From an uncultured delta proteobacterium (GTDB taxonomy: Bacteria > Desulfobacterota > Syntrophia > Syntrophales > UBA2185), in the NCBI GenBank assembly GCA_963729715.1, contig CAVSPA010000004.1, positions 256,001 through 320,000 of the forward strand: DNA of 64,000 bases, given 5' to 3'. Of this stretch, positions 26,079 to 49,286 are shown one piece after another. The position numbers and the translations under genes are program-made. A model generated the notes under the pieces. It was not told the DNA's origin. It worked only from the letters and a program-made list of their open reading frames with translations, and searched no databases. Positions within the stretch are counted from its first letter, which is position 1. Each line of letters starts with the position of its first letter.

Positions 26079-26882
26079 CTATAGCCATCTTTTCCGACGG
26101 CGATATGACTTAACGTCGTTATATGATTTCAGAGTCCCTTCGGCACCCATGCCCAGGTAAAATTCTTTTATATCGGGATTCTCGACAAGATTCTTTGCAG
26201 CATCTTCCATCACTATCTTGCCGTTTTCCATTACATACCCGTAATCCGAAATTTGCAGGGCCATATTGGCGTTCTGCTCCACGAGGACAATGCTCGTCCC
26301 CTGTTCTGCGTTTATCTTTTTGATAATCTCGAATATCTCTTTGACGATCATGGGAGCAAGCCCGAGTGACGGTTCATCCAGGAGCAAGAGGGCGGGATGG
26401 GCCATCAACGCCCTTCCCATGACTATCATCTGGAGCTCTCCTCCGCTGCAGTACCCTGCGAGCATCTTTCTCCGTTTCACTATGCCGGGAAAATAGTTAT
26501 AAACCATTTCCAGATCCTTCTTATATGGCTTCCGCCAGCGGATAGCTGTCCCGACAATAAGATTTTCCTCCACAGTCAGATATTTGAAGGGCTGGCGTCC
26601 TTCGAGAACCTGAATTATTCCTTTACGCGTGATCACCTCCGGAGCGTGATTCTGGATAGGTTGTCCATCGTACGTTATTGTTCCATCCGTCACCTTGCCG
26701 TTCTCAGGCTTGAGCAATCCCGAGATGGCTTTCAGCGTCGTCGTCTTGCCTGCGCCGTTGCTCCCGATAAGCGACGTGATGGATTTTCTCTTAACGACGA
26801 GAGACACGCCCTTGAGTACCTGGATTACGTCCGAATAAACAACGGATATATTATTGATCTCAAGAATAGTACTGTCAGTCAT
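26079..26882 (-). CDS. ABC transporter ATPase (LivF-like)
   Basis: GSNGAGKTT, SGGELQ, LLLDEPSLGLAP, VEQN; start at MTDST. Confidence 0.93.
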   Translation of the reverse strand: MTDSTILEINNISVVYSDVIQVLKGVSLVVKRKSITSLIGSNGAGKTTTLKAISGLLKPENGKVTDGTITYDGQPIQNHAPEVITRKGIIQVLEGRQPFKYLTVEENLIVGTAIRWRKPYKKDLEMVYNYFPGIVKRRKMLAGYCSGGELQMIVMGRALMAHPALLLLDEPSLGLAPMIVKEIFEIIKKINAEQGTSIVLVEQNANMALQISDYGYVMENGKIVMEDAAKNLVENPDIKEFYLGMGAEGTLKSYNDVKSYRRRKRWL

Positions 26883-26893
26883 TTGAGAATGCC

Positions 26894-27964
26894 TCAATAG
26901 GCGAAAGGCCATAGTTTAAAGTTGGAACGAATGATGCGCCACACCTCAGCAAGGCCTCGCGGTTCGAAGAGAATAAAGAGAACTATGGATGTGCCAAAAA
27001 AGAATTCTCTTAGAGGAGCGATATTCAAACCGGATTCCGTGAGCACTCCTATGTTCATCATAACGCCCGTGAGCCACCGCAACAGTTCATTTAAAAATGT
27101 TATAAAGACTGCGCCGTATATGGAGCCTGAGATACTTCCCAAGCCTCCAATGATTACCATAGCTATGTATTCAACGGAAAGGCCCAGGGTGAACGGTTCA
27201 GACGTGATACTGACCATATAATAAGCCCATATGGCGCCGGCAAAACCGGCATAAAAAGAACTGATTCCAAAAGAAAGGAGCTTATATCTGAAGAGAGGAA
27301 TACCCATGCCTTCTGCGGCCCTGTCGTTATCGCGAATAGCGATGAAGGCCCTGCCATACTTCGTCCGTATGAGATTGACTGCGAACCATATCATGACCAT
27401 GAGGCAGCAGAATATCAGAAAAAAGAAACTACGATCACTCTCCAATTCGACTCCGAAAATATTCGGCCGCGGCAGGGTTATCCCCATAGTGCCCTTCGTA
27501 AGGGTTTCCCAGTGGACTAAGGCATATTCGATGATGATTTGGCCTGCGAGCGTTGCAATTGTGAGATAGAGGCCCTTGAGGCGACCCGAAGGAATGCCGA
27601 ATATCATGCCTACCATAGCCGAGACCAAGCCCGCCACGGGCAGGGTAATGAGAAAGGGCATGTTTACCGACGTGGCCAGTATCGCGGCGGCGTAAGCCCC
27701 GACTCCTATGAAAGCCCCGTGGCCGAGAGATATCTGTCCCGCATATCCGATGAGGATATTCAGCCCTATCGCCGCGATGGACGCTATCCCCACCATGTTC
27801 AGAACATGGAGAAAGTACGGACTGACAATATAGGGCAAAACAACAAAGAGGAAGAACATGCCTATCCCCGTCCACAGCCTGCCAAAGTCTGTTTCAAAGA
27901 TGGTAATTTCCTGTTCATATCGCTCTTTATAATTGCCGCAAGTGTGGAAGTTCATTTTTTTCAT
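26894..27964 (-). CDS. ABC transporter permease (LivM-like)
   Basis: GYAGQISLGH, GLYLTIATL, GRAFIAIRDN, IIGGLGS. Confidence 0.93.
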   Translation of the reverse strand: MKKMNFHTCGNYKERYEQEITIFETDFGRLWTGIGMFFLFVVLPYIVSPYFLHVLNMVGIASIAAIGLNILIGYAGQISLGHGAFIGVGAYAAAILATSVNMPFLITLPVAGLVSAMVGMIFGIPSGRLKGLYLTIATLAGQIIIEYALVHWETLTKGTMGITLPRPNIFGVELESDRSFFFLIFCCLMVMIWFAVNLIRTKYGRAFIAIRDNDRAAEGMGIPLFRYKLLSFGISSFYAGFAGAIWAYYMVSITSEPFTLGLSVEYIAMVIIGGLGSISGSIYGAVFITFLNELLRWLTGVMMNIGVLTESGLNIAPLREFFFGTSIVLFILFEPRGLAEVWRIIRSNFKLWPFAY

Positions 27965-27971
27965 TGCCGCC

Positions 27972-28850
27972 TCACACCCTTTCAATTTCTGCGAGACCGA
28001 AAAGGCCATACGGCTTCACCATAAGTATGACCACGAGGATCACGTACGGCACAACGTCGCTTAGCGATGGTGAAATGTAGCCGCCGGTGAAGGTTTCCAG
28101 AAGTCCAATGATAATACCCCCGATGATAGCCCCGCCGATGCTGTCCAATCCGCCGAGAATGACGACGGGGAACACTTTCAGGCCGATGGCGCTGAGGTCA
28201 TGGACGTTAATGCCGTTTATGATGCCCAGAACTATGCCGCTCATACCGGCCACAAGCGCGGCAATGGCCCAGGATAAAGCAAACACCCTTTGCACATGTA
28301 CACCCAGCGAAAGGGCCGCCTTTTGATTGTCGGCGACGGACCTCATGAATATTCCCTGCGATGAGTACTTAAAAAATAATCCGAAGAGAATGAGAAACAT
28401 TATCCCGATTATGAGGGCAGCCGTATAGACAGGCGGTATGTTAATCACGTGCCACTCTATACCGAGGAATTCGGGCAGAAAATCGGGATAGGTCTGCAGA
28501 TTGCCTCCCCAAAAGAGAAGCATGAGGCCTTTAAACATCGACGCCAGTCCCACTGTCAGCATTATTACGTAGATCAGGGGTTCGCCGATAAGGGGACGCA
28601 GGAAGAAGCGCTCTATGATGAATCCGAGGATAAAGCATGCGGCAAGGGTTACCAGGAAAGCGACAACTACCGGCAATTTCACCCATGTTACCATGGCGAG
28701 AAAGAAGAAAGCTCCGAAAGCAAGCAATTCGCCGTGGGCAAAATTGAGGACGCTTGAGGATTTGAATATCATAACAAAACCCATGGCAGACAGGCCATAT
28801 AGGAATCCTATACTTATGCCGTTTATGAAGAGTTGAAGAAAAAAATTCAT
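27972..28850 (-). CDS. ABC transporter permease (LivH-like)
   Basis: LNFAHGE, RSVADN..AALSLG, ILGGLDS, KPYGLFG. Confidence 0.93.
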   Translation of the reverse strand: MNFFLQLFINGISIGFLYGLSAMGFVMIFKSSSVLNFAHGELLAFGAFFFLAMVTWVKLPVVVAFLVTLAACFILGFIIERFFLRPLIGEPLIYVIMLTVGLASMFKGLMLLFWGGNLQTYPDFLPEFLGIEWHVINIPPVYTAALIIGIMFLILFGLFFKYSSQGIFMRSVADNQKAALSLGVHVQRVFALSWAIAALVAGMSGIVLGIINGINVHDLSAIGLKVFPVVILGGLDSIGGAIIGGIIIGLLETFTGGYISPSLSDVVPYVILVVILMVKPYGLFGLAEIERV

Positions 28851-28860
28851 ACACTATCCC

Positions 28861-30810
28861 TCAGTTGAGATTAATAACTCTGACCCGCGTTTCAATTTCA
28901 CCAACCTGACCGTCCCGATACTGGATTTTTGTTTTGACATCAACCTCATCCCTGCCCGCATACATGGCCTCAATAAGCTGGAGATACAGGCCATAAATGA
29001 ATCTCCTTCGAACTTTTCCCGTTCTCGTCAGCTCTTCATCATCGGCGTCGAGGAGCTTATAGAGCAATATGAACTTGCGAACCTTCATGAGGTCCGGCAG
29101 GTTGCTATTCACCTTTCTCACCTCGTTAAGTATCAGTTCCTCAACCGCTGTCTGTTGCGAGAGGTCTATATATGTTGTGTATGGAATCATGCGCTCCTCA
29201 GCCCAATTCCCGACATTACCCATGTCTATATTGATGAGTGCAGTGATGTAAGGGCGCCCCTCGCCGAACATCACCGCTTCCTTGATATACGGACTGAACT
29301 TGAGACGCGTCTCTATGAAGTCCGGTGAAAACGCCGCCCCTTCCTTATTCTTTATAATGTCTCCTTTACGGCCGATGATCACAAGATGACCCTCTTTGTC
29401 TATGTAACCGGCGTCGCCGGTTCTGAGCCAGCCGCTGCTAAAGGCCTCTTCCGTAGCTTTAAAATCGTTATGGTAGCCGACAAAGTTTGAATCGCTCTGT
29501 ACAAGCACCTCCTGATCATCTGCAATCTTAACCAGGGTTCTCGGCAAGGGTTTCCCCACAGACTCGAGCTTGATTTCGCAATCGGGCTGGACCTGGAATA
29601 TCCCCCCTGCCTCGGTCAGGCCGTAACACTGCTTGAGATTCAAGCCGATTGCACGGAAAAAATGGATCACATCGGGACTGATGGGATGACCGCCCGTGAA
29701 GGCGCTCTTGAAACCTGCACATCCGACTCTATCAAGCAACGGCCGGTATATTCCCAATGCTGCGATACGAAGAAGAAAATTTAGATGACCGGGAACCGCC
29801 TCTCCTTTCGATTGCAGCTCGACAGCCTTCTTTCCGATTTCCACCGACATAGAGAAAAGCTTACGCCTGAGAAATCCGGCATCGTCCATTTTCACCATAA
29901 TGCGCGAAGCGAGATCTTCCCAGAATCGGGACGATGTGATGATGATCGAGGGGCCTATCTCGCGAAAGTCTTCGTCTATCGTCTCCGGCATTTCCGGGAA
30001 ATTTACTGCCATGCCCCCCAGGAGTGCCACTCCGACCCCGCACATCTGGTCAACAATCCAGGCTGGCGGAGATATTGAGATCCAGTTGTCGCCGGAAGTG
30101 ATGGGTAAGGATTCTATCCAATTCCTTGCCATTTCTATGATATTGCGATGCGACAGCATGGCGAGTTTGGAAATGCCCGTGGTGCCGGACGTCTGAATCA
30201 TAATTGCTACATTATCGCGTCTGCCCTTCTGCAATTCCCTGAGGAATAGATCCGGATTTTCACAGTCAATCTTTTCGCCCATCTCCAATAGATCGGAAAA
30301 ACTCACAAGCCATGGATTATCCCTGTATGCTCTCATACCCGTGGGATCTATGTAGATGACTCGGCGAACGTGAGACAGTCGTTCACGCGTCTCAATCAGC
30401 TTATCGACCTGTTCCTGGTTTTCCGCGATAACGTAAGCCGCCTTAATGCGGCTGAGGGCATGACATAATTCTTCGGGCACGGAAGAGGTAAATAGATTAA
30501 GCGACACCCCACCGACGGACTGGCAACCGATTTCAGAAAAGAGCCATTCCGGGATATTGTTCGTGACTATGCCGATGTTTTCCCCTCTTTTCAGCCCGAT
30601 GTTGTTCAAGCCGAGGCCTGTGTGTTTCATATAGCGGTAGTAATCGAGCCAGCTATAGGTCTGCCAAATGCCGTACGCCTTTTCTCGAATAGCCGTCGCT
30701 TTGGAGCCAAGCCGCTCCGCTTGTCTCATCAGAATCCGTGGCAGCGTATACGGGGTTACGGTTGCCCACTCTGTATCTTCCGCCTGCTTTCTATTTACCA
30801 CCGCACACAC
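28861..30810 (-). CDS. AMP-forming acyl-CoA ligase (long-chain-type family) embedded in the ABC operon
   Basis: TSGTTG..K P-loop, YGLTE, RTGDAG, IIGRK, TRTGKVRR. Confidence 0.9.
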   Translation of the reverse strand: MCAVVNRKQAEDTEWATVTPYTLPRILMRQAERLGSKATAIREKAYGIWQTYSWLDYYRYMKHTGLGLNNIGLKRGENIGIVTNNIPEWLFSEIGCQSVGGVSLNLFTSSVPEELCHALSRIKAAYVIAENQEQVDKLIETRERLSHVRRVIYIDPTGMRAYRDNPWLVSFSDLLEMGEKIDCENPDLFLRELQKGRRDNVAIMIQTSGTTGISKLAMLSHRNIIEMARNWIESLPITSGDNWISISPPAWIVDQMCGVGVALLGGMAVNFPEMPETIDEDFREIGPSIIITSSRFWEDLASRIMVKMDDAGFLRRKLFSMSVEIGKKAVELQSKGEAVPGHLNFLLRIAALGIYRPLLDRVGCAGFKSAFTGGHPISPDVIHFFRAIGLNLKQCYGLTEAGGIFQVQPDCEIKLESVGKPLPRTLVKIADDQEVLVQSDSNFVGYHNDFKATEEAFSSGWLRTGDAGYIDKEGHLVIIGRKGDIIKNKEGAAFSPDFIETRLKFSPYIKEAVMFGEGRPYITALINIDMGNVGNWAEERMIPYTTYIDLSQQTAVEELILNEVRKVNSNLPDLMKVRKFILLYKLLDADDEELTRTGKVRRRFIYGLYLQLIEAMYAGRDEVDVKTKIQYRDGQVGEIETRVRVINLN

Positions 30811-30816
30811 CTTCTT

Positions 30817-31644
30817 CTATGCACTCGCAGAATCGCCGAGATATGCCTTGATGACTTCCGGATGTTTACGAATCTCATGCGGGTCCCCCTCGGCAAGCTT
30901 CTCCCCGAAGTTCAAGACCACAATCCGCTCGGAGATGCTCATGACTACGGACATATCATGTTCCACGAGAACCATCGTTTGGCCCCATGCGCGGTTCATC
31001 TCTGTCAGGAAGCGCACCATGTCTTCCTTTTCTTCGAGGTTCATTCCCGCGAATGGTTCATCCAATATCAATAGTGCGGGTTCCAAGGCCAGTGCCCGAC
31101 CGAGTTCGACTCTCTTCATCAAACCGTAGGGCAATGACCCCACCCTCTTCTTTCTGATGGCCTGGATCTCGAGGAAATCTACCAGCTCTTCGATGACACG
31201 TCGTTGATGGACCTCTTCCTTCCGTACGGATGGTGAAAAAATACTGGCGCCCGCAATTCCATACTTACAGTGATTGTGGCGCGCAAGAAGCATATTCGAT
31301 AGAACAGTCATGCCCGGAAAGAGCTCGATGTTTTGAAAGGTCCTGCCAATTCCTATGCGGACAAGATGATGAGGGGAAAGATTTGTTATGTCCTTCCCGT
31401 TAAATACGATGCGGCCCTCTTGCGGCCTGTAAAAGCCGGTCATGCAATTCAACAGGCTCGTCTTTCCGGCGCCATTCGGCCCGATAACGGCCACCAACTC
31501 TCCCGTACGCACGGACATATCAACGTCATTGAGCGCCTTGACGCCGCCGAAGCTTAAGGAAAGGTTTCTTACCTCAAGCTCTGCAGCCTTCTCAACCGGA
31601 CTTCTTGATGCGAATATAGCAGGTTTTCCTCGATATGCTTTCAT
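30817..31644 (-). CDS. ABC transporter ATPase (LivG-like)
   Basis: GPNGAGKT, RTFQN, LPYG..KRVELGRAL, VEHDM. Confidence 0.93.
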   Translation of the reverse strand: MKAYRGKPAIFASRSPVEKAAELEVRNLSLSFGGVKALNDVDMSVRTGELVAVIGPNGAGKTSLLNCMTGFYRPQEGRIVFNGKDITNLSPHHLVRIGIGRTFQNIELFPGMTVLSNMLLARHNHCKYGIAGASIFSPSVRKEEVHQRRVIEELVDFLEIQAIRKKRVGSLPYGLMKRVELGRALALEPALLILDEPFAGMNLEEKEDMVRFLTEMNRAWGQTMVLVEHDMSVVMSISERIVVLNFGEKLAEGDPHEIRKHPEVIKAYLGDSASA

Positions 31645-31657
31645 AAATCCAAAGTTG

Positions 31658-32863
31658 CTATTTCAATAACTTGATCTTTTCCTTCAATGGATTAAAGAAA
31701 TTTGTCAAAGGGGTGAAGGAGCCGTCCTCGCCCACCTTTACGATTCTCGCCTTGAATGATGCCCCGTGATCGGTTTGCGTATACGTAACATTGGGGACGA
31801 GGCCGCCGAAATCCTCGTTCCTGAAAGACTCCATTGCCTTATTGATCGTTTCTCTATTGATCTCTTTATATTTTTGATTGGCGCGGATAAATGCCCTCTC
31901 CATGATCATGCCGACAACGATACCTTCCCAGTACGATGCATCGAATTTTTCGACCGTCCTGTAACGCTTCCACAACTCAGTCATTACCTTAATGCCCCGA
32001 CTCTTGTCAGAGGGAACGCCTCCGGGAAACTGGATACGCAGCCTGTCCCTTATAAGGCCTTTGCCGAGCTTGAAGAAATCCGGGTCCGTCGACGTCCACG
32101 TGCCGAGGAATACGGGGTTATAATTTATACGGTCCGCGCTCTTAAAGGCCGTGACAATGGCCGCAGGAAGCATTTGCATGAATATGTATTCCGCACCTTT
32201 TCTCTGCAAACGGAGCAACTCAGTGGTCAAATCCACAGTCTTGGGAGGAAATTCTTCGATGGCCACAATATTCATATTGATCTTCTTTGCGTATTCTCTA
32301 CAGGGCTCGTGAATGGAGCGGCCATAGGCATTATTGTATGTAAGAAGACCCACCTTGGGCGCCTCCTTTCCTTTGTGGATGGCGCGTATATATTCCAGTA
32401 TGGCATAACTGTCCATCCGATAGCTCCCAAAGGGGAGATACATATAACTCACCGGGGGTTCAAGGAGTTCCCAGCTTGTCGAGTAATTGATGGTGGGGAT
32501 CCTGTATTGCTGAATGATCGGTTTGACTGCCAGGCCTTCTCCGGCTCCCCACGTGGCCATCATATCCACGCGATCCTGGATGGCAAATCTCTTGGCGGCG
32601 GCAACGGCCTCCGGAACCTTGTATTCCGTATCGACGAGGATCATTTCAATCCTGTTTCCACCGACGCCCCCCTTCACCTCGTTCACGTAACGGAAATAAT
32701 CCTGCTGTCCCCTTGCATGGAACTGTCCCCACGAGGATGCAGGACCGGTCATGTTTATTGCCGCACCAACCTTTATTGTATTGGCGTGAAGAGCTGTATT
32801 AGAGAGACAGACAGCGAGACCTATTATGGCTGAGCAGATACTTACGGTAGATCCTGTTTTCAT
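31658..32863 (-). CDS. ABC substrate-binding protein (LivJ/K-like type I PBP; aromatic/organic acid-binding type likely)
   Basis: Signal peptide, IKVG..MTGP, N.KGGVGG, DTEYKVPEA; SD GGAGG. Confidence 0.9.
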   Translation of the reverse strand: MKTGSTVSICSAIIGLAVCLSNTALHANTIKVGAAINMTGPASSWGQFHARGQQDYFRYVNEVKGGVGGNRIEMILVDTEYKVPEAVAAAKRFAIQDRVDMMATWGAGEGLAVKPIIQQYRIPTINYSTSWELLEPPVSYMYLPFGSYRMDSYAILEYIRAIHKGKEAPKVGLLTYNNAYGRSIHEPCREYAKKINMNIVAIEEFPPKTVDLTTELLRLQRKGAEYIFMQMLPAAIVTAFKSADRINYNPVFLGTWTSTDPDFFKLGKGLIRDRLRIQFPGGVPSDKSRGIKVMTELWKRYRTVEKFDASYWEGIVVGMIMERAFIRANQKYKEINRETINKAMESFRNEDFGGLVPNVTYTQTDHGASFKARIVKVGEDGSFTPLTNFFNPLKEKIKLLK

Positions 32864-32882
32864 ACGTGTCCTCCATCAAAAT

Positions 32883-32911
32883 AAAAAAGGCCTGGAAAAT
32901 TCACGGCCTTT
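32883..32911 (-). terminator. Second terminator hairpin of the Phe leader
   Basis: Minus strand AAAGGCC-gtgaattttcca-GGCCTTTTTT followed by ATTTTG. Confidence 0.65.
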
Positions 32912-32914
32912 CGC

Positions 32915-32953
32915 AAAAAAAAGCCGTCGGCAGTATTTGGTCTGCCCACGGCT
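32915..32953 (-). terminator. Attenuator terminator of the Phe leader
   Basis: Minus strand AGCCGTGGGCAG-accaaata-CTGCCGACGGC then T8. Confidence 0.9.
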
Positions 32954-32973
32954 ACATTTAAGAAAATCTCAGG

Positions 32974-33048
32974 TCATGAGCGCGGCAGGCAGACCTCACT
33001 AAAGAAACCAAAAAAGACAAAAAAACTTTCTGCCTGCATGTGCGTCAT
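32974..33048 (-). CDS. Phe-rich attenuation leader peptide MTHMQAESFFVFFGFFSEVCLPRS (24 aa)
   Basis: SD AAGGA before ATG; 6 Phe codons in 8; overlaps antiterminator arm; terminator follows. Confidence 0.88.
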   Translation of the reverse strand: MTHMQAESFFVFFGFFSEVCLPRS

Positions 33049-33086
33049 ATCCTTTATTCCGAGTGCTTATCTACAGTATACTCAGC

Positions 33087-33115
33087 CTTATAAAGCCAAT
33101 TGAGACCTGTGTCAA
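33087..33115 (-). promoter_or_regulatory. Sigma70-type promoter of the Phe leader/ABC operon
   Basis: Minus strand TTGACA-17 bp-TATAAG, about 40 nt before the leader ATG. Confidence 0.75.
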
Positions 33116-33134
33116 GAAAAAATCTTCACTAATT

Positions 33135-34499
33135 TCATTCTGCCCCAAGCTTTTCTATCCTGTAACGCAGTGAATCAAAACTCACTTGGAGAATCTCAGC
33201 AGCCTTGGTCTTGGAGCCCTTCGCTTTCTTAAGAGCTTTTTCTATGAGATGCTTTTCGTACTTTGCCACTTCTTCGTTGAGGTTCAAGCCGTCATCGGGT
33301 ATATCAGTATCAGCAAACCCTCTCACATCCTGGAGGCTGCCTGCCAGATGAAGGTTCTCCGGGAGGATTATGTTAGATGTCTCGAGGGCAACACTTCGTT
33401 CAATAATATTTTCAAGCTCCCTCACGTTTCCTGGAAAAGGATATTTCATCAGAAGCTCCAGTGCATACGAAGATATTGTCCTGACTTCTTTACCGAACTC
33501 CTTAGAACATTTTTCGATGAAATGCCTTGTTAAGACCGGTATATCCTCTCTCCTCTCTTTCAAGGGCGGAATGTTTATAGGTATGACATTTAGGCGAAAA
33601 TATAGATCTTCCCTGAAGGAACCGTCTCTAACTTTTTCTTCGAGATTCTTGTTCGTCGCCGAGATGATTCTGACATCGATCTTCTTCTCTTCCGCCCCCC
33701 CTACCCTTCGAAATGTCTTTTCCTGAACGACTCTGAGAAGTTTTACTTGAAGAAGCGGCGGTAAGTCACCTATCTCGTCGAGAAATATAGTGCCGCCGCG
33801 TGCGATCTCAAAGAGCCCTGATTTATCTCCGTAGGCGCCTGTAAATGCGCCTTTCACGTAGCCGAACAATTCGCTCTCGAGGAGGCTTTCGGGAACGCCG
33901 CCGCAATTAATCACTTCAAAAGGCATATTCTTTCTCGGACTATTTTCATGGATGGCCCTCGCTACAAGCTCTTTGCCTGTTCCGCTCTCCCCCAAAATCA
34001 GGACATTGGTGGGCGTTTCCGCCACCTTCTTAATGAGTGAATACACCTTAAGCATTCCCTTGCTCTTGCCGATCATATTTCCGAAAGATACCGCATCTTC
34101 CACTTCTTTAATGAATAAAGCATCTTCTCTTTTTACACCTTTTTTATCGAGGGCACTGCTGATAATGGTCTTTATATCTTCGATGTTGAAGCCCTTCTCG
34201 ATATAGTCATAGGCACCTTCCTTCATGGCCGAGACAGCCGTCTCAGGAGATGCGTAAGCGGTAATTAATATTACCATCGCCTCTTGGGTAATCTCTTTGA
34301 CCGCTTTCAAAAATTCTATGCCGTCTACCTTAGGCATCTTCAAGTCAGTGAGGATAAGATCAAATTTCTCTTTTTTGCAACGGTTCAGCGCTTTTGTTGC
34401 GTCAGGTGCGGTTGTCACATCATACCCTTCCCTGGTGAGCATGATCTCGAGAAATTCCCTTATTCCCTCATCGTCATCCACTACTAAAATTTTTGCCAC
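33135..34499 (-). CDS. pilR: Sigma54-dependent response regulator (PilR-like)
   Basis: REC, GESGTGKE, GAFTGA, FPGNVREL, Fis-type HTH; follows PilS-like kinase. Confidence 0.82.
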   Translation of the reverse strand: MAKILVVDDDEGIREFLEIMLTREGYDVTTAPDATKALNRCKKEKFDLILTDLKMPKVDGIEFLKAVKEITQEAMVILITAYASPETAVSAMKEGAYDYIEKGFNIEDIKTIISSALDKKGVKREDALFIKEVEDAVSFGNMIGKSKGMLKVYSLIKKVAETPTNVLILGESGTGKELVARAIHENSPRKNMPFEVINCGGVPESLLESELFGYVKGAFTGAYGDKSGLFEIARGGTIFLDEIGDLPPLLQVKLLRVVQEKTFRRVGGAEEKKIDVRIISATNKNLEEKVRDGSFREDLYFRLNVIPINIPPLKERREDIPVLTRHFIEKCSKEFGKEVRTISSYALELLMKYPFPGNVRELENIIERSVALETSNIILPENLHLAGSLQDVRGFADTDIPDDGLNLNEEVAKYEKHLIEKALKKAKGSKTKAAEILQVSFDSLRYRIEKLGAE

Positions 34500-34538
34500 G
34501 TACTCTCTCCTTGTGAAGAAAACCGATGATCACGGAAT

Positions 34539-36221
34539 TTAACTGCTTCCTCCAATCAAGGGCAAAGATACCATACAGATTGTCCCTTTTCCGACGCCCT
34601 TTCTAATCAAAATTCTTCCCGTGTATCCTTCGATGATTCTATTGACTATTGCAAGACCAAGGCCTGTTCCTCTCTCCCTCGTCGTGAAAAACGGTTCAAA
34701 TATCTTGTCCAGATATTTATCATCAATGCCATAACCCGTGTCACTCACCCGTATCTCCAGGGATTCACCGAGTGCACCGTCATATATCTTTCGCGTTTCT
34801 ACAGAGAGCTCGCCTCCTTCAGGCATAGATTGAACGGCATTCATGACAAGGTTCCATATAACTTCTCTTATTTCCGTCCTGTTGGCATAAACACCGAGAT
34901 TATCCGAGAATTCAAGACGAACCTTAATATCATCGTTCCAATCAGGCAGATACTGAATAGATTCTATCACGCCTTCGATGATTTCTTTCATGAAAACCGT
35001 CTCGCGTTCACCCGGCGCAGGTCTTGCGAGCAATAGAAAATCCTTTATGACGTGATCCAGCTGATCCTTGCCCCTGAGAATGATCTGCATGAGCTTTTCA
35101 TCTACCTCGGATAATTGCAGATCCCTCTTCAAAATCTGGATCGATCCGCTCAGAGAGGCAAGGGGATTTCTCATCTCATGTGCAAGACCAGCCGCCATTT
35201 CACCGATAATGGCCAGTCTCTTACTCTTTTCCAAGGCCTCTTCCATTTCTATCAGAGAAGTGATGTCCTGGAAAATTACAATGTCGCCTATCCTTTTTCC
35301 CTTGCTGTCTTTGAGAGTCGAAACCAGGCAGCTCAATATAAGCCGATTGTTCTTTTCACGGATAAATTCTATATTATATCTGTTTTTCGATGATCGTTTG
35401 TCATCATCTTCTTTGGTCTTCTCACGCACTTCGGCGAATCCGGGAAATACTTCGACGATATTTCTATTTTCGACGTCGGCAAAAGCAAATCCGGAGATTT
35501 CCTCAGCGGCTCTGTTAAAGGATTTTATTCTCCCCTGACGGTTGATCGTCATGATACCGGTCTCAACTGACTCGATGATACTCCTGTGCAATAAATCAAG
35601 TTGATCGAATGCAGTCTCTTTTTCGGCAAGAAGCGTCCGCACCTTTCTTTCCTGCTCAACTACGAAGCTCGCAAGGAGGCCGATAATGTAAAAAGACAGC
35701 AGGTGGACAAATATTCGCGAAAAGACATATCCGGCACCCATATCATAGTCATGAACAGCCAGCGCGTTTATGGGATGGATGACACCGTAATACTCCAAAT
35801 CCAGCAGCAAACCATATAGAATGCCCGAGGCTGAGGCGATGATGAGTCCGCCCCGCCTTTCCAAGAACAAGACCGAATATATGATGACCAAAGGATAGAA
35901 AACAGAATATATACTGCTAATTCCACCCGTTATGTACACAAGGAATGTTATTAAGGCTGCATCGGTGAGGGCCTGGATATATATGTTTAATCTATTCTTC
36001 TTGACGAACTTCAGAAGGAGAACATAAATTAAGGAAAGGAAGTAGGTTATCGCGCAAAGTGCGTAAAGCGATGTCAGCGCTTTCTCGGGAAATATTTCCG
36101 TTTTTTGGAACTTGATGAATGTTGTTACCATTAACAGGAAGGTAACGATTGCCACCCTCGACAGCATCAACCAGCGAAGTCTCGTTTCTATACCTTCTTC
36201 CTGCAATAATTGCTCACTCAT
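34539..36221 (-). CDS. pilS: Membrane sensor kinase (PilS-like)
   Basis: RLRWLMLSRV start, multi-TM region with TGGISSIYS, PAS, AHEMRNPL, PFFTT..GTGLGL. Confidence 0.82.
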   Translation of the reverse strand: MSEQLLQEEGIETRLRWLMLSRVAIVTFLLMVTTFIKFQKTEIFPEKALTSLYALCAITYFLSLIYVLLLKFVKKNRLNIYIQALTDAALITFLVYITGGISSIYSVFYPLVIIYSVLFLERRGGLIIASASGILYGLLLDLEYYGVIHPINALAVHDYDMGAGYVFSRIFVHLLSFYIIGLLASFVVEQERKVRTLLAEKETAFDQLDLLHRSIIESVETGIMTINRQGRIKSFNRAAEEISGFAFADVENRNIVEVFPGFAEVREKTKEDDDKRSSKNRYNIEFIREKNNRLILSCLVSTLKDSKGKRIGDIVIFQDITSLIEMEEALEKSKRLAIIGEMAAGLAHEMRNPLASLSGSIQILKRDLQLSEVDEKLMQIILRGKDQLDHVIKDFLLLARPAPGERETVFMKEIIEGVIESIQYLPDWNDDIKVRLEFSDNLGVYANRTEIREVIWNLVMNAVQSMPEGGELSVETRKIYDGALGESLEIRVSDTGYGIDDKYLDKIFEPFFTTRERGTGLGLAIVNRIIEGYTGRILIRKGVGKGTICMVSLPLIGGSS

Positions 36222-47570: not shown

Positions 47571-47642
47571 TTGAACTACTTATTTTTAACAATCATCAAC
47601 TGGTGGTGGCAGAATCCAATGCAGGGGTTTGTCCACCGCTGA
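47571..47642 (+). CDS. trpL: Trp attenuation leader peptide MNYLFLTIINWWWQNPMQGFVHR (23 aa, TTG start)
   Basis: SD GGAAGGA; three tandem TGG at 47601-47609; precedes terminator and trpE. Confidence 0.9.
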   Translation: MNYLFLTIINWWWQNPMQGFVHR

Positions 47643-47664
47643 TTTATTTCGTTGACTAAAGCAT

Positions 47665-47700
47665 AGCCGTGGAGACCTCGTCGGACTCCGCGGCTTTTTT
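47665..47700 (+). terminator. trp attenuator terminator
   Basis: AGCCGTGGAG..CTCCGCGGCT stem with T run; antiterminator arm TCCACCGCT at 47632-47640. Confidence 0.9.
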
Positions 47701-47713
47701 GTTATTGGAGCAC

Positions 47714-47750
47714 AAGAAAGGCCGCAATTGTAAGCGGCCTTTCTTATTTT
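47714..47750 (+). terminator. Second terminator-like hairpin of the trp leader
   Basis: Perfect 12-bp stem AAGAAAGGCCGC-aattgtaa-GCGGCCTTTCTT then ATTTT. Confidence 0.7.
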
Positions 47751-47789: not shown

Positions 47790-49286
47790 ATGTACTACCC
47801 GGCCTTTGACCAGTTTGTGAAATTTGCCGAAGAGGGAAACCTCATCCCCGTGTACAGGGAGATACTCGCCGACATAGATACGCCGGTCTCCGCCCTCATG
47901 AAGCTCAGTACGAAAGCCCATGTCTTTCTTCTGGAGAGCGTAGAGGGGGGCGAGAAATGGGGGCGCTATACATTTCTCGGTTCAGACCCGCGCATTGTCT
48001 TCAAGGTCAGGGGTGACGATGTGCTGATATCTGAAAACAGCAAGAGCAGAGTCCAGAGACACGAAGGGAATCCTCTCAGATATCTGAAGGATTTATTGAA
48101 CTCCTATCGGCCTGTTCTCGTGGATGGGCTGCCGCGGTTTTACGGCGGCGCCGTGGGATTTCTCGGCTACGATATGGTTCGCTATTTTGAAAAAATCCCT
48201 GCCCGTGCTTTGAACGACGTGAAGATGGACGATGCAGTCTTCCTCATCACGGATACGCTGATTGTCTTTGACAATATCAGGCACACGATCAAAGTGGTCT
48301 CATGCGCGGCAACCGAAGGCACCGCGTCCCTCAAAGATGTTTACGACGAGACCATCGATAAGATAGACAGGCTGATAGCAATCATCAGAGCGCCTGTTGA
48401 AGCAACGGAGCGCTACAGAAAGGTGGAAAACGAGGTACCCCTCGGGTCTAATATGTCGGCGGAAGACTTTAAGGCAACGGTCGAGAAGGCCAAGGAATAC
48501 ATCGTCGCCGGCGACATCATACAGGTCGTTCTGTCCCAGCGTTTTCAGGCGAAGAACGGGATAGACCCGCTCGACCTCTACAGGGCGCTCCGTTATGTGA
48601 ACCCCTCCCCTTACCTCTTCTTTCTCAAGCTTGATGAGACGTTTTTGATAGGCTCCTCGCCTGAGGTCATGGTCAGGCTTGACGAAGGAGTCGCGGAACT
48701 CCGGCCCATTGCAGGAACTCGCAGAAGAGGAAGAAACGAGCAGGAAGACAGGCAGTTTGCCCATGAGCTCCTCGAGGATCCGAAAGAAAGGGCCGAACAC
48801 GTGATGCTTGTTGACCTAGGGAGAAATGACCTGGGAAGAATAGCACGGACAGGCAGTGTGCAGGTCAATCAGCTTATGGTCGTGGAGCGGTATTCACACG
48901 TCATGCATCTTGTCACGAACATCCAGGCGCAATTGGCCCCCGGAAAAGATTGTTTTGATCTCCTTGCGGCATCGTTTCCCGCCGGCACACTATCCGGTGC
49001 GCCTAAGGTCAGGGCCATGGAGATCATCGATGAACTGGAGCCGACCAGACGCGGCATTTACGGGGGAGCCGTCGGTTACTTCAGTTACACGGGCAATATG
49101 GACCTCTGCATAACCATCCGAACCATGCTGGTCAAAGACGGAAAGATTTTCATACAGGTGGGCGCCGGCATCGTAGCCGATTCCGACCCGGAGAAGGAAT
49201 ATCAGGAAACGGTAAATAAGGGCGAAGCGATGATGCAGGCCATACGCCTTGCCGCGTCCGGTTTCGAACTGAGAAAGAATATCTGA
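47790..49286 (+). CDS. trpE: Anthranilate synthase component I
   Basis: LLES, NPSPY, GSSPE, PIAGT, AEHVMLVDLGRND, GAPK. Confidence 0.97.
   Translation: MYYPAFDQFVKFAEEGNLIPVYREILADIDTPVSALMKLSTKAHVFLLESVEGGEKWGRYTFLGSDPRIVFKVRGDDVLISENSKSRVQRHEGNPLRYLKDLLNSYRPVLVDGLPRFYGGAVGFLGYDMVRYFEKIPARALNDVKMDDAVFLITDTLIVFDNIRHTIKVVSCAATEGTASLKDVYDETIDKIDRLIAIIRAPVEATERYRKVENEVPLGSNMSAEDFKATVEKAKEYIVAGDIIQVVLSQRFQAKNGIDPLDLYRALRYVNPSPYLFFLKLDETFLIGSSPEVMVRLDEGVAELRPIAGTRRRGRNEQEDRQFAHELLEDPKERAEHVMLVDLGRNDLGRIARTGSVQVNQLMVVERYSHVMHLVTNIQAQLAPGKDCFDLLAASFPAGTLSGAPKVRAMEIIDELEPTRRGIYGGAVGYFSYTGNMDLCITIRTMLVKDGKIFIQVGAGIVADSDPEKEYQETVNKGEAMMQAIRLAASGFELRKNI

Follow-up and report, generated by a model that had tools for sequence, protein, structure and literature searches.

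In the his leader of Salmonella, six segments (A–F) alternate between E:F pairing when the leader is translated and B:C plus D:E pairing when the ribosome is stalled (PMC4046918), and in ermK of Bacillus licheniformis two adjacent terminators have been reported under one leader (PMC4335068). In classical attenuator models, helix 2:3 forms ahead of the completion of segment 4 (PMC1183508, section 12). Tandem riboswitches are characterized in PMC9481103 as 'pseudo-cooperative', with read-through transcripts meeting a second decision point and a steeper response as the outcome.

Here we analyzed a Phe leader in a 64,000-nucleotide stretch of Syntrophales DNA (the window), in which a terminator hairpin (T1, segments 3 and 4) is followed by a second hairpin (T2, segments 5 and 6). 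Comparison with related leaders confirms the predicted leader, with T1 and a second hairpin bearing its own U-tract, as a real and conserved feature. As in Salmonella his, a leader peptide with a cognate codon run precedes six alternating segments (1:2/3:4/5:6 versus 2:3/4:5), and the his D:E pairing corresponds to 4:5 here. The initial annotation had set this layout against a textbook model of four segments, which is apt for trp but not for Salmonella his, with its six segments and one terminator (PMC4046918). Unlike his as described there, in which only the last hairpin is a terminator, the middle hairpin here also has a U-tract (at least seven U in eight bases in 55 of 66 related leaders with both hairpins), and the two hairpins share basal sequence.

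The likeness to ermK, seen here by sequence only, lies in two adjacent predicted intrinsic terminators under one leader peptide; unlike ermK, which is reported to respond to antibiotic (macrolide) stalling before a single resistance gene, the present leader has amino-acid control codons and no resistance gene follows. The 1:2, 2:3 and 3:4 logic is that of E. coli trpL and pheL (PMC4615214; PMC1183508, section 12), the Phe-codon run being shared with pheL; in contrast to these leaders, with one terminator and biosynthetic genes, two predicted terminators and transporter genes are present here. Serial decision points are also found in tandem riboswitches, where every terminator has its own independent sensor, whereas here one sensor would govern both by direct pairing. 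No separate sensor of the tandem riboswitch or T-box kind precedes each terminator, the gap being 3 bases and without an Rfam match. A codon-run ORF, a terminator before the first gene and an antiterminator, as in leader-peptide attenuators, are all recognizable, and by these features the locus appears to work like a classical attenuator and to be neither a his-type nor an ermK-type member.

Each part therefore has a precedent, the six segments in the his leader and the pair of terminators in that of ermK, and within the literature searched the combination appears new. The parts of PMC5418344, PMC2965389, PMC4615214, PMC4833913 and PMC11857589 that were accessible are without this two-terminator design. 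Our literature search, in which subscription journals were poorly covered, found nothing on amino-acid attenuators with two sequence-matched, cross-pairing terminators and nothing on attenuators of this order. A comparative survey of 2010 (Lopatovskaya, Seliverstov, Lyubetsky) reportedly predicted attenuators in deltaproteobacteria and may include these leaders.

Layout of the phenylalanine leader

On the minus strand, the leader is flanked by a sigma-54-type regulator gene and an ABC transporter operon, as judged from the ORF list and domain matches. The leader comprises the following features.

33087..33115, minus strand: putative and probable sigma-70 promoter (TTGACA, 17 nt, TATAAG), read from the sequence
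32974..33048, minus strand: leader ORF of 24 codons, MTHMQAESFFVFFGFFSEVCLPRS, with an alternative start at 33039
33029..33037, minus strand: segment 1, pairing with segment 2 as a putative protector hairpin (1:2, -15.9 kcal/mol)
33001..33024, minus strand: control codons, 6 Phe in 8 codons (ORF translation)
32982..32995, minus strand: segment 2, 5' arm of antiterminator 2:3 (-25.7 kcal/mol)
32939..32953, minus strand: segment 3, 3' arm of 2:3 and also 5' arm of T1
32915..32933, minus strand: segment 4 and U8 tract, 3' arm of T1 (-21.3 kcal/mol) and partner of segment 5 when T1 is open
32900..32911, minus strand: segment 5, 5' arm of T2, pairing with segment 4 (4:5, -12.2 kcal/mol)
32878..32896, minus strand: segment 6 and U6-A-U4 tract, 3' arm of T2 (helix prediction)
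32869..32875, minus strand: UGGAGGA, the ribosome-binding site for the first gene, whose ATG at 32863 follows after 6 bases

The promoter is absent from the output of a consensus promoter/terminator scan; among 80 orthologous upstream regions, 46 contain a loose form of its pattern, a count made without a chance control. Helix 1:2 is a perfect 9 bp in the window and beats shuffled sequences at the 5% level or better in 41/65 orthologues. Helix 2:3 overlaps the end of the leader ORF and excludes T1 in masked folding of the window.

The T1 stem spans 32953-32922 (minus strand, -21.3 kcal/mol) and its U8 tract 32922-32915; three bases (GCG, 32914-32912) separate this tract from T2, whose arms are AAAGGCCGU at 32911-32903 and GGCCUUUUUU at 32892-32883 (minus strand). 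The initial annotation had thus placed the second hairpin correctly, 3 nt past the T1 U-tract, and its count of 9 bp between the 5' arm of that hairpin and the 3' arm of T1 also holds, one G-U pair included (segment 4 at 32927-32919); ViennaRNA adds a tenth pair (-12.2). T2 reaches -11.2 kcal/mol with its A-U pairs, and its G-C core alone -6.4 to -6.6 kcal/mol. At -6.4 versus -10.2 or -11.7 in congeneric leaders, this core is the weakest among the leaders tabulated, because an A stands at 32901 where nine congeneric leaders have G; this A, which costs T2 about 4 kcal/mol, is either a private change or an assembly variant. Neither T1 nor T2 appears in the consensus terminator scan output, and an Rfam search of 30000-36000 gave no match at E<=1.

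Taken by itself, the window does not set the 4:5 pairing apart from chance: when the 47 bases that follow T1 were shuffled 2000 times, an equally good pairing with segment 4 arose 447 times. This result is in keeping with a different explanation, in which T2 is a duplicated T1 that acts as a weak constitutive terminator (a fixed dampener) and 4:5 is a by-product of the duplication, of common descent or of exchange between the copies. Since segments 5 and 6 look like segments 3 and 4, respectively, any duplication would be expected to yield cross-pairing. The divergence of upper stems and loops, with only the basal bases staying matched, speaks against this explanation, as does the comparison of relatives below, and we regard it as quite unlikely.

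The downstream operon

Two entries describe the genes downstream of the leader.

31658..32863, minus strand: first gene, LivK-type ABC substrate-binding protein (PF13458, E 7e-47)
26079..31644, minus strand: remainder of the operon, encoding an ABC ATPase, an AMP-binding acyl-CoA ligase-like protein, two permeases and a second ATPase

The closest solved chain to the binding protein is 3lkb_A (E 8e-34). PF00005, PF12399, PF00501 and PF02653 were matched in the first three genes after the binding protein, and the last two operon genes are named from their translations alone. The acyl-CoA ligase-like protein stays under all NCBIfam cut-offs listed, the best being FadD11. The presence of a Phe leader before a transporter operon suggests that the transported substrate may be Phe, or an aromatic acid from which Phe would be made after activation.

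Conservation among orthologous leaders

A total of 102 loci with the binding-protein gene were collected; five lacked usable upstream DNA, and the remainder gave 80 distinct leaders, one of them hand-anchored. The script located the leader ORF in 65 of the 66 leaders that carry both terminators; most orthologous leaders are Phe-rich with a VC(L/P)xxS-like tail. Counting T2 as full when a hairpin of -6 or better is followed by at least six U in eight bases, we found a full T2 in 66/80 distinct leaders (hereafter dual leaders), a hairpin without such a tract in four and no hairpin in ten. Ten of the 14 leaders without a full T2 belong to one clade that includes Smithellaceae records, according to a quick tree of 79 proteins.

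In this clade (L063, L064, L066, L069, L073, L076, L077, L080, L097, L120) T1 is the sole terminator-like hairpin and is followed by a nine-U tract. Five Smithellaceae-type loci have another Phe-rich ORF upstream, which was left uncounted, as it seems by eye to overlap the promoter.

All five positions of the 4:5 core are paired in 66/66 dual leaders. In comparison, the 5:6 pairs at two of five core positions hold in only 47/66 and 54/66. The reason is that bases have been lost or altered in segment 6 but retained in segment 5, where they now pair with segment 4 only; these segment 6 defects are spread over several separate clades (quick tree, read by eye). The segment 5 core has three variants among the dual leaders, and segment 6 has 16. 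Placing segment 5 where it matches segment 4 best sets the register of the comparison and not the asymmetry between segments 5 and 6. Such one-sided drift argues against 4:5 as a mere by-product of duplication, and three leaders have a base of segment 4 without a match in T1 (3:4) yet paired in 4:5. A point in favor of duplication is that a shortened segment 5 remnant persists, directly after the T1 U-tract, in the clade that lost segment 6.

The covariation alignment comprised 54 of the 66 dual leaders. Paired cells amounted to 97.2% for 2:3, 97.1% for 4:5, 94.7% for 3:4 and 90.2% for 5:6, and changes on both sides were found in 2/10, 1/7, 3/12 and 3/7 pairs, respectively. Direct covariation for 4:5 within the phe family is therefore thin, with both-side changes in a single pair.

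The U-tracts bear on a further alternative, namely a his-type relay with one effective terminator per leader, in which 3:4 is mainly a relay hairpin and 5:6 the true stop, with roles reversed in lineages without T2; the pairings would be as described here, and the effects of the two sites would not be multiplied. In addition to the alternating layout shared with Salmonella his (PMC4046918), this alternative is favored by a shorter unbroken U run after T1 in the dual leaders (mean 6.4, at most four in eight of the 66) than in the 14 leaders without T2 (8.5), and by the share with at least seven U in eight bases, 55/66 for T1 versus 65/66 for T2, the T2 set having been preselected for at least six. 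Nevertheless, T1 of the window has a U8 tract and -21.3 kcal/mol against only -6.4 for the T2 core, both U-tracts are kept by most dual leaders, and 10 of the 14 single-terminator leaders form one clade. We consider one effective terminator per leader improbable, and two coupled terminators the likely arrangement.

The same design before other operons

A whole-genome scan gave 2264 terminator-like sites, from which 79 loose tandem pairs of hairpin plus U-tract were obtained. When these 79 are ordered by cross-pairing, ranks 1, 3, 4 and 7 go to the leaders of aroF, trpE, ilvB and the present transporter. Equally good pairing with each segment 4 was seen for only 5-6 of the 124-125 other intergenic terminator arms. 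The trpE leader lies within the window itself.

47571..47745, plus strand: Trp leader (47571-47642), T1 (47666-47694) and T2 (47717-47745), before trpE at 47790

Starting with TTG, the Trp leader peptide carries three Trp codons and precedes trpE-trpG-trpD-trpC-trpF-like genes; the TrpE of the window scores above the TIGR00564 cut-off, and the leader design is conserved in relatives. The aroF leader (G000 C6:211049, plus strand; L146) is a Tyr/Phe/Trp leader with dual terminators before DAHP synthase, and the ilvB leader (G000 C5:672926, minus strand; L147) a Val/Ile/Leu leader with dual terminators before acetolactate synthase. In each case the amino acid of the control codons fits the genes: Trp with TrpE, aromatic amino acids with DAHP synthase, and Val/Ile/Leu with acetolactate synthase.

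For a survey of these classes, the 30 best loci each for trpE, aroF and ilvB were taken from 71 genomes of the order. The script scored 22 trpE, 27 aroF and 25 ilvB loci as dual; read by eye, L157 and L164 (trp) and L216, L217, L219 and L230 (ilv) are also dual, and T2 of L160 was misassigned by the script. What computation shows is the sequence, the helices, their conservation and the return of the design in four classes of operon.

Segment 5 is class-specific, with A opposite U in 17/27 aro and C opposite G in 25/25 ilv leaders. Where the T1 tail has changed from U to C (L216, L217 and L219), segments 3, 5 and 6 carry matching changes. The 4:5 match stops past the core (position +1 in 3/25 ilv, position +2 in 1/22 trp leaders); therefore, T2 is not simply a fresh copy of T1. 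With the classes pooled, 272/280 4:5 cells are paired versus 239.7 after permutation, a value reached in 0/2000 permutations, although this result rests on few class-level events among kin, which are not independent. Within classes the same permutation is weak (309 of 2000 for aro, 61 for trp and 85 for phe), and 9/27 aro leaders have one 4:5 core mismatch, a point in favor of the duplication explanation. A general preference of the genome for one terminator stem was rejected: the shared stem motif occurs in 9/126 intergenic terminators, seven of which are attenuator hairpins, and is therefore no general terminator preference, which also weighs against the duplication explanation. In our view T2 probably did arise as a copy of T1, of which only the basal 5-7 bases were kept matched to segment 4.

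Taken together, the presence of T2 in 66/80 leaders, the intact 4:5 core in 66/66 and the recurrence of the design at trpE, aroF and ilvB, where segment 5 has changed to match, support the six-segment coupling of two terminators that had been proposed from the window alone, and we judge this coupling to be likely. Points against it are the weak covariation within classes, the aro mismatches, the 14 phe leaders without a full T2 and two Leu leaders of this genome that have one terminator each.

Related leaders, both dual and single, were also seen beyond Syntrophales, in further families of the phylum. A loose phylum-wide pattern matches 203/401 genomes, a figure that is no count of the dual design because many chance matches are included: among 30 of these loci read by eye, 17 are a leader plus two hairpins, one has one hairpin and 12 are chance-like.

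Predicted folding and proposed mechanism

Ribosome-masked folding, suggested in the initial annotation as a check, bears out the proposed flip between 2:3 plus 4:5 and 3:4 plus 5:6 for the window, and less so for the relatives. With the window masked at the middle Phe codon, the 2:3 plus 4:5 fold is obtained (P(4:5)=0.94, P(T1)=0.08, P(5:6)=0.05), and with the mask at the stop codon P(T1)=P(T2)=1.00. In the off state, T1 forms in 65/65 phe, 21/21 trp, 27/27 aro and 24/25 ilv leaders. In the stalled state at equilibrium, 4:5 exceeds 0.5 in only 29/65 phe, 1/21 trp, 3/27 aro and 7/25 ilv leaders, T1 exceeds 0.5 in 33/65 homologues, and the full T2 is more stable than 4:5 in 22/66 phe leaders.

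As equilibrium favors 4:5 in a minority of homologues, the on state would depend on the order of synthesis, and the calculations suggest that the switch is kinetic rather than set by equilibrium in most of them. When segment 3 is held and the two lowest pairs of T2 are left out, 4:5 prevails in 60/65 phe, 21/21 trp, 23/27 aro and 25/25 ilv leaders; the omitted pairs represent those still inside the polymerase, and the comparison favors 4:5 by design. According to rough path estimates, the barrier from 4:5 to 5:6 is 13.5 kcal/mol in the window and has a median of 11.6 (minimum 7.3); the path to T1 plus T2 costs 8.0 kcal/mol once segment 3 is released.

These findings are best described by a ribosome-sensed transcription attenuator with a relay-coupled second terminator, which we hold to be the probable reading. 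With ample Phe-tRNA, the ribosome would reach the leader stop codon and cover segment 2, allowing 3:4 (T1) to form; with T1 formed, segment 5 would be free, and 5:6 (T2) would stop polymerases leaking through T1. With the ribosome stalled on the Phe codons, 2:3 would form first and leave segment 4 free to catch the emerging segment 5 before segment 6 exists. Segment 5 being captured by segment 4, neither terminator would then form and the transporter operon would be read. Termination at both sites, its dependence on Phe, the kinetic order and a lower leak are what we infer from the predicted structures.

Beyond catching leak, T2 might re-test the same ribosome, a tentative extension that we find somewhat doubtful. 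If the ribosome moved on after the polymerase had passed T1, segment 3 would be released and could retake segment 4; segment 5 would thereby be freed and T2 would terminate, against a barrier of 8.0 kcal/mol as compared to 13.5 while 2:3 holds. The modeled path estimates support the relay and allow this second look. Were the latter true, only a longer stall would allow expression, the response to the single sensor would be steeper, and a shared attenuator module with swapped control codons would serve many amino-acid operons of one phylum in this way.

When 4:5 is forced, the freed segment 6 can pair with the ribosome-binding site, which raises the alternative that 5:6 mainly controls translation of the first gene or mRNA stability, for instance by keeping segment 6 off that site. 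An anti-SD helix of -8.7 kcal/mol is possible in the window, and the median unpaired probability of the ribosome-binding site is 0.25 with 4:5 and 0.68 with 5:6. The direction of this effect is wrong for a switch opened by starvation; moreover, the U-rich tail right after the T2 stem is kept (at least seven U in 65/66), and the start codon lies far downstream in the trp and aro leaders of this genome. A main role in translation or stability is accordingly very unlikely. For the coupled attenuator, refolding to 5:6 after read-through would free the ribosome-binding site.

Significance of the dual design

Two termination checkpoints under one sensor would cost about 40 extra bases. The dual design is usual for the Phe-transporter, trp, aro and ilv leaders of the Syntrophales sampled and is also present in other families of the phylum; its recurrence before several amino-acid operons suggests a conserved variation on the classic ribosome-sensed attenuator. 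Natural leaders with and without T2 offer a direct comparison of what a second coupled terminator gains, be it lower leak or a steeper response. In addition, for unnamed transporters and enzymes of these mostly uncultured anaerobes, the conserved leader points to the amino acid that each probably serves.

Further leaders and repeats

L143, L144, L145, L127 and L244 share this leader module, their control codons being for Trp, Tyr or Phe, and the genes that follow are, by eye, indolepyruvate oxidoreductase-, acyl-CoA synthetase-, 2-hydroxyacyl-CoA dehydratase- and hydrolase-like, which suggests that aromatic acids are salvaged into amino acids at these loci. Tyr-rich leaders with dual terminators precede a different LivK-type binding protein (L138-L142). 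Dual terminators also follow Phe/Tyr leaders from other families of the phylum (L240, L242, L243, L246-L254), which precede the gene for a conserved protein of ~397 aa, aminotransferase-like by reading.

Two Leu-rich leaders of this genome (G000 C7:102575, plus strand, and C5:309427, minus strand) have a single terminator of the same stem family; by eye, the former stands before a LeuA-like gene and the latter before a 2-oxoacid:ferredoxin oxidoreductase-like operon, a hint that Leu may be made there by reductive carboxylation. At C5:743388, a candidate Trp leader followed by two hairpins was dropped, as it looks by eye like a tRNA gene. At G000 C16:37239 a two-way terminator has the attenuator-type basal stem and is without a convincing leader.

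Finally, G000 has at least nine copies of a ~140-base repeat that contains two related hairpins and is probably the end of an insertion sequence (e.g. C4:292458, C4:450566, C5:182146 and C7:113475), the copy at C4:292458 lying at about 36458 in the window.
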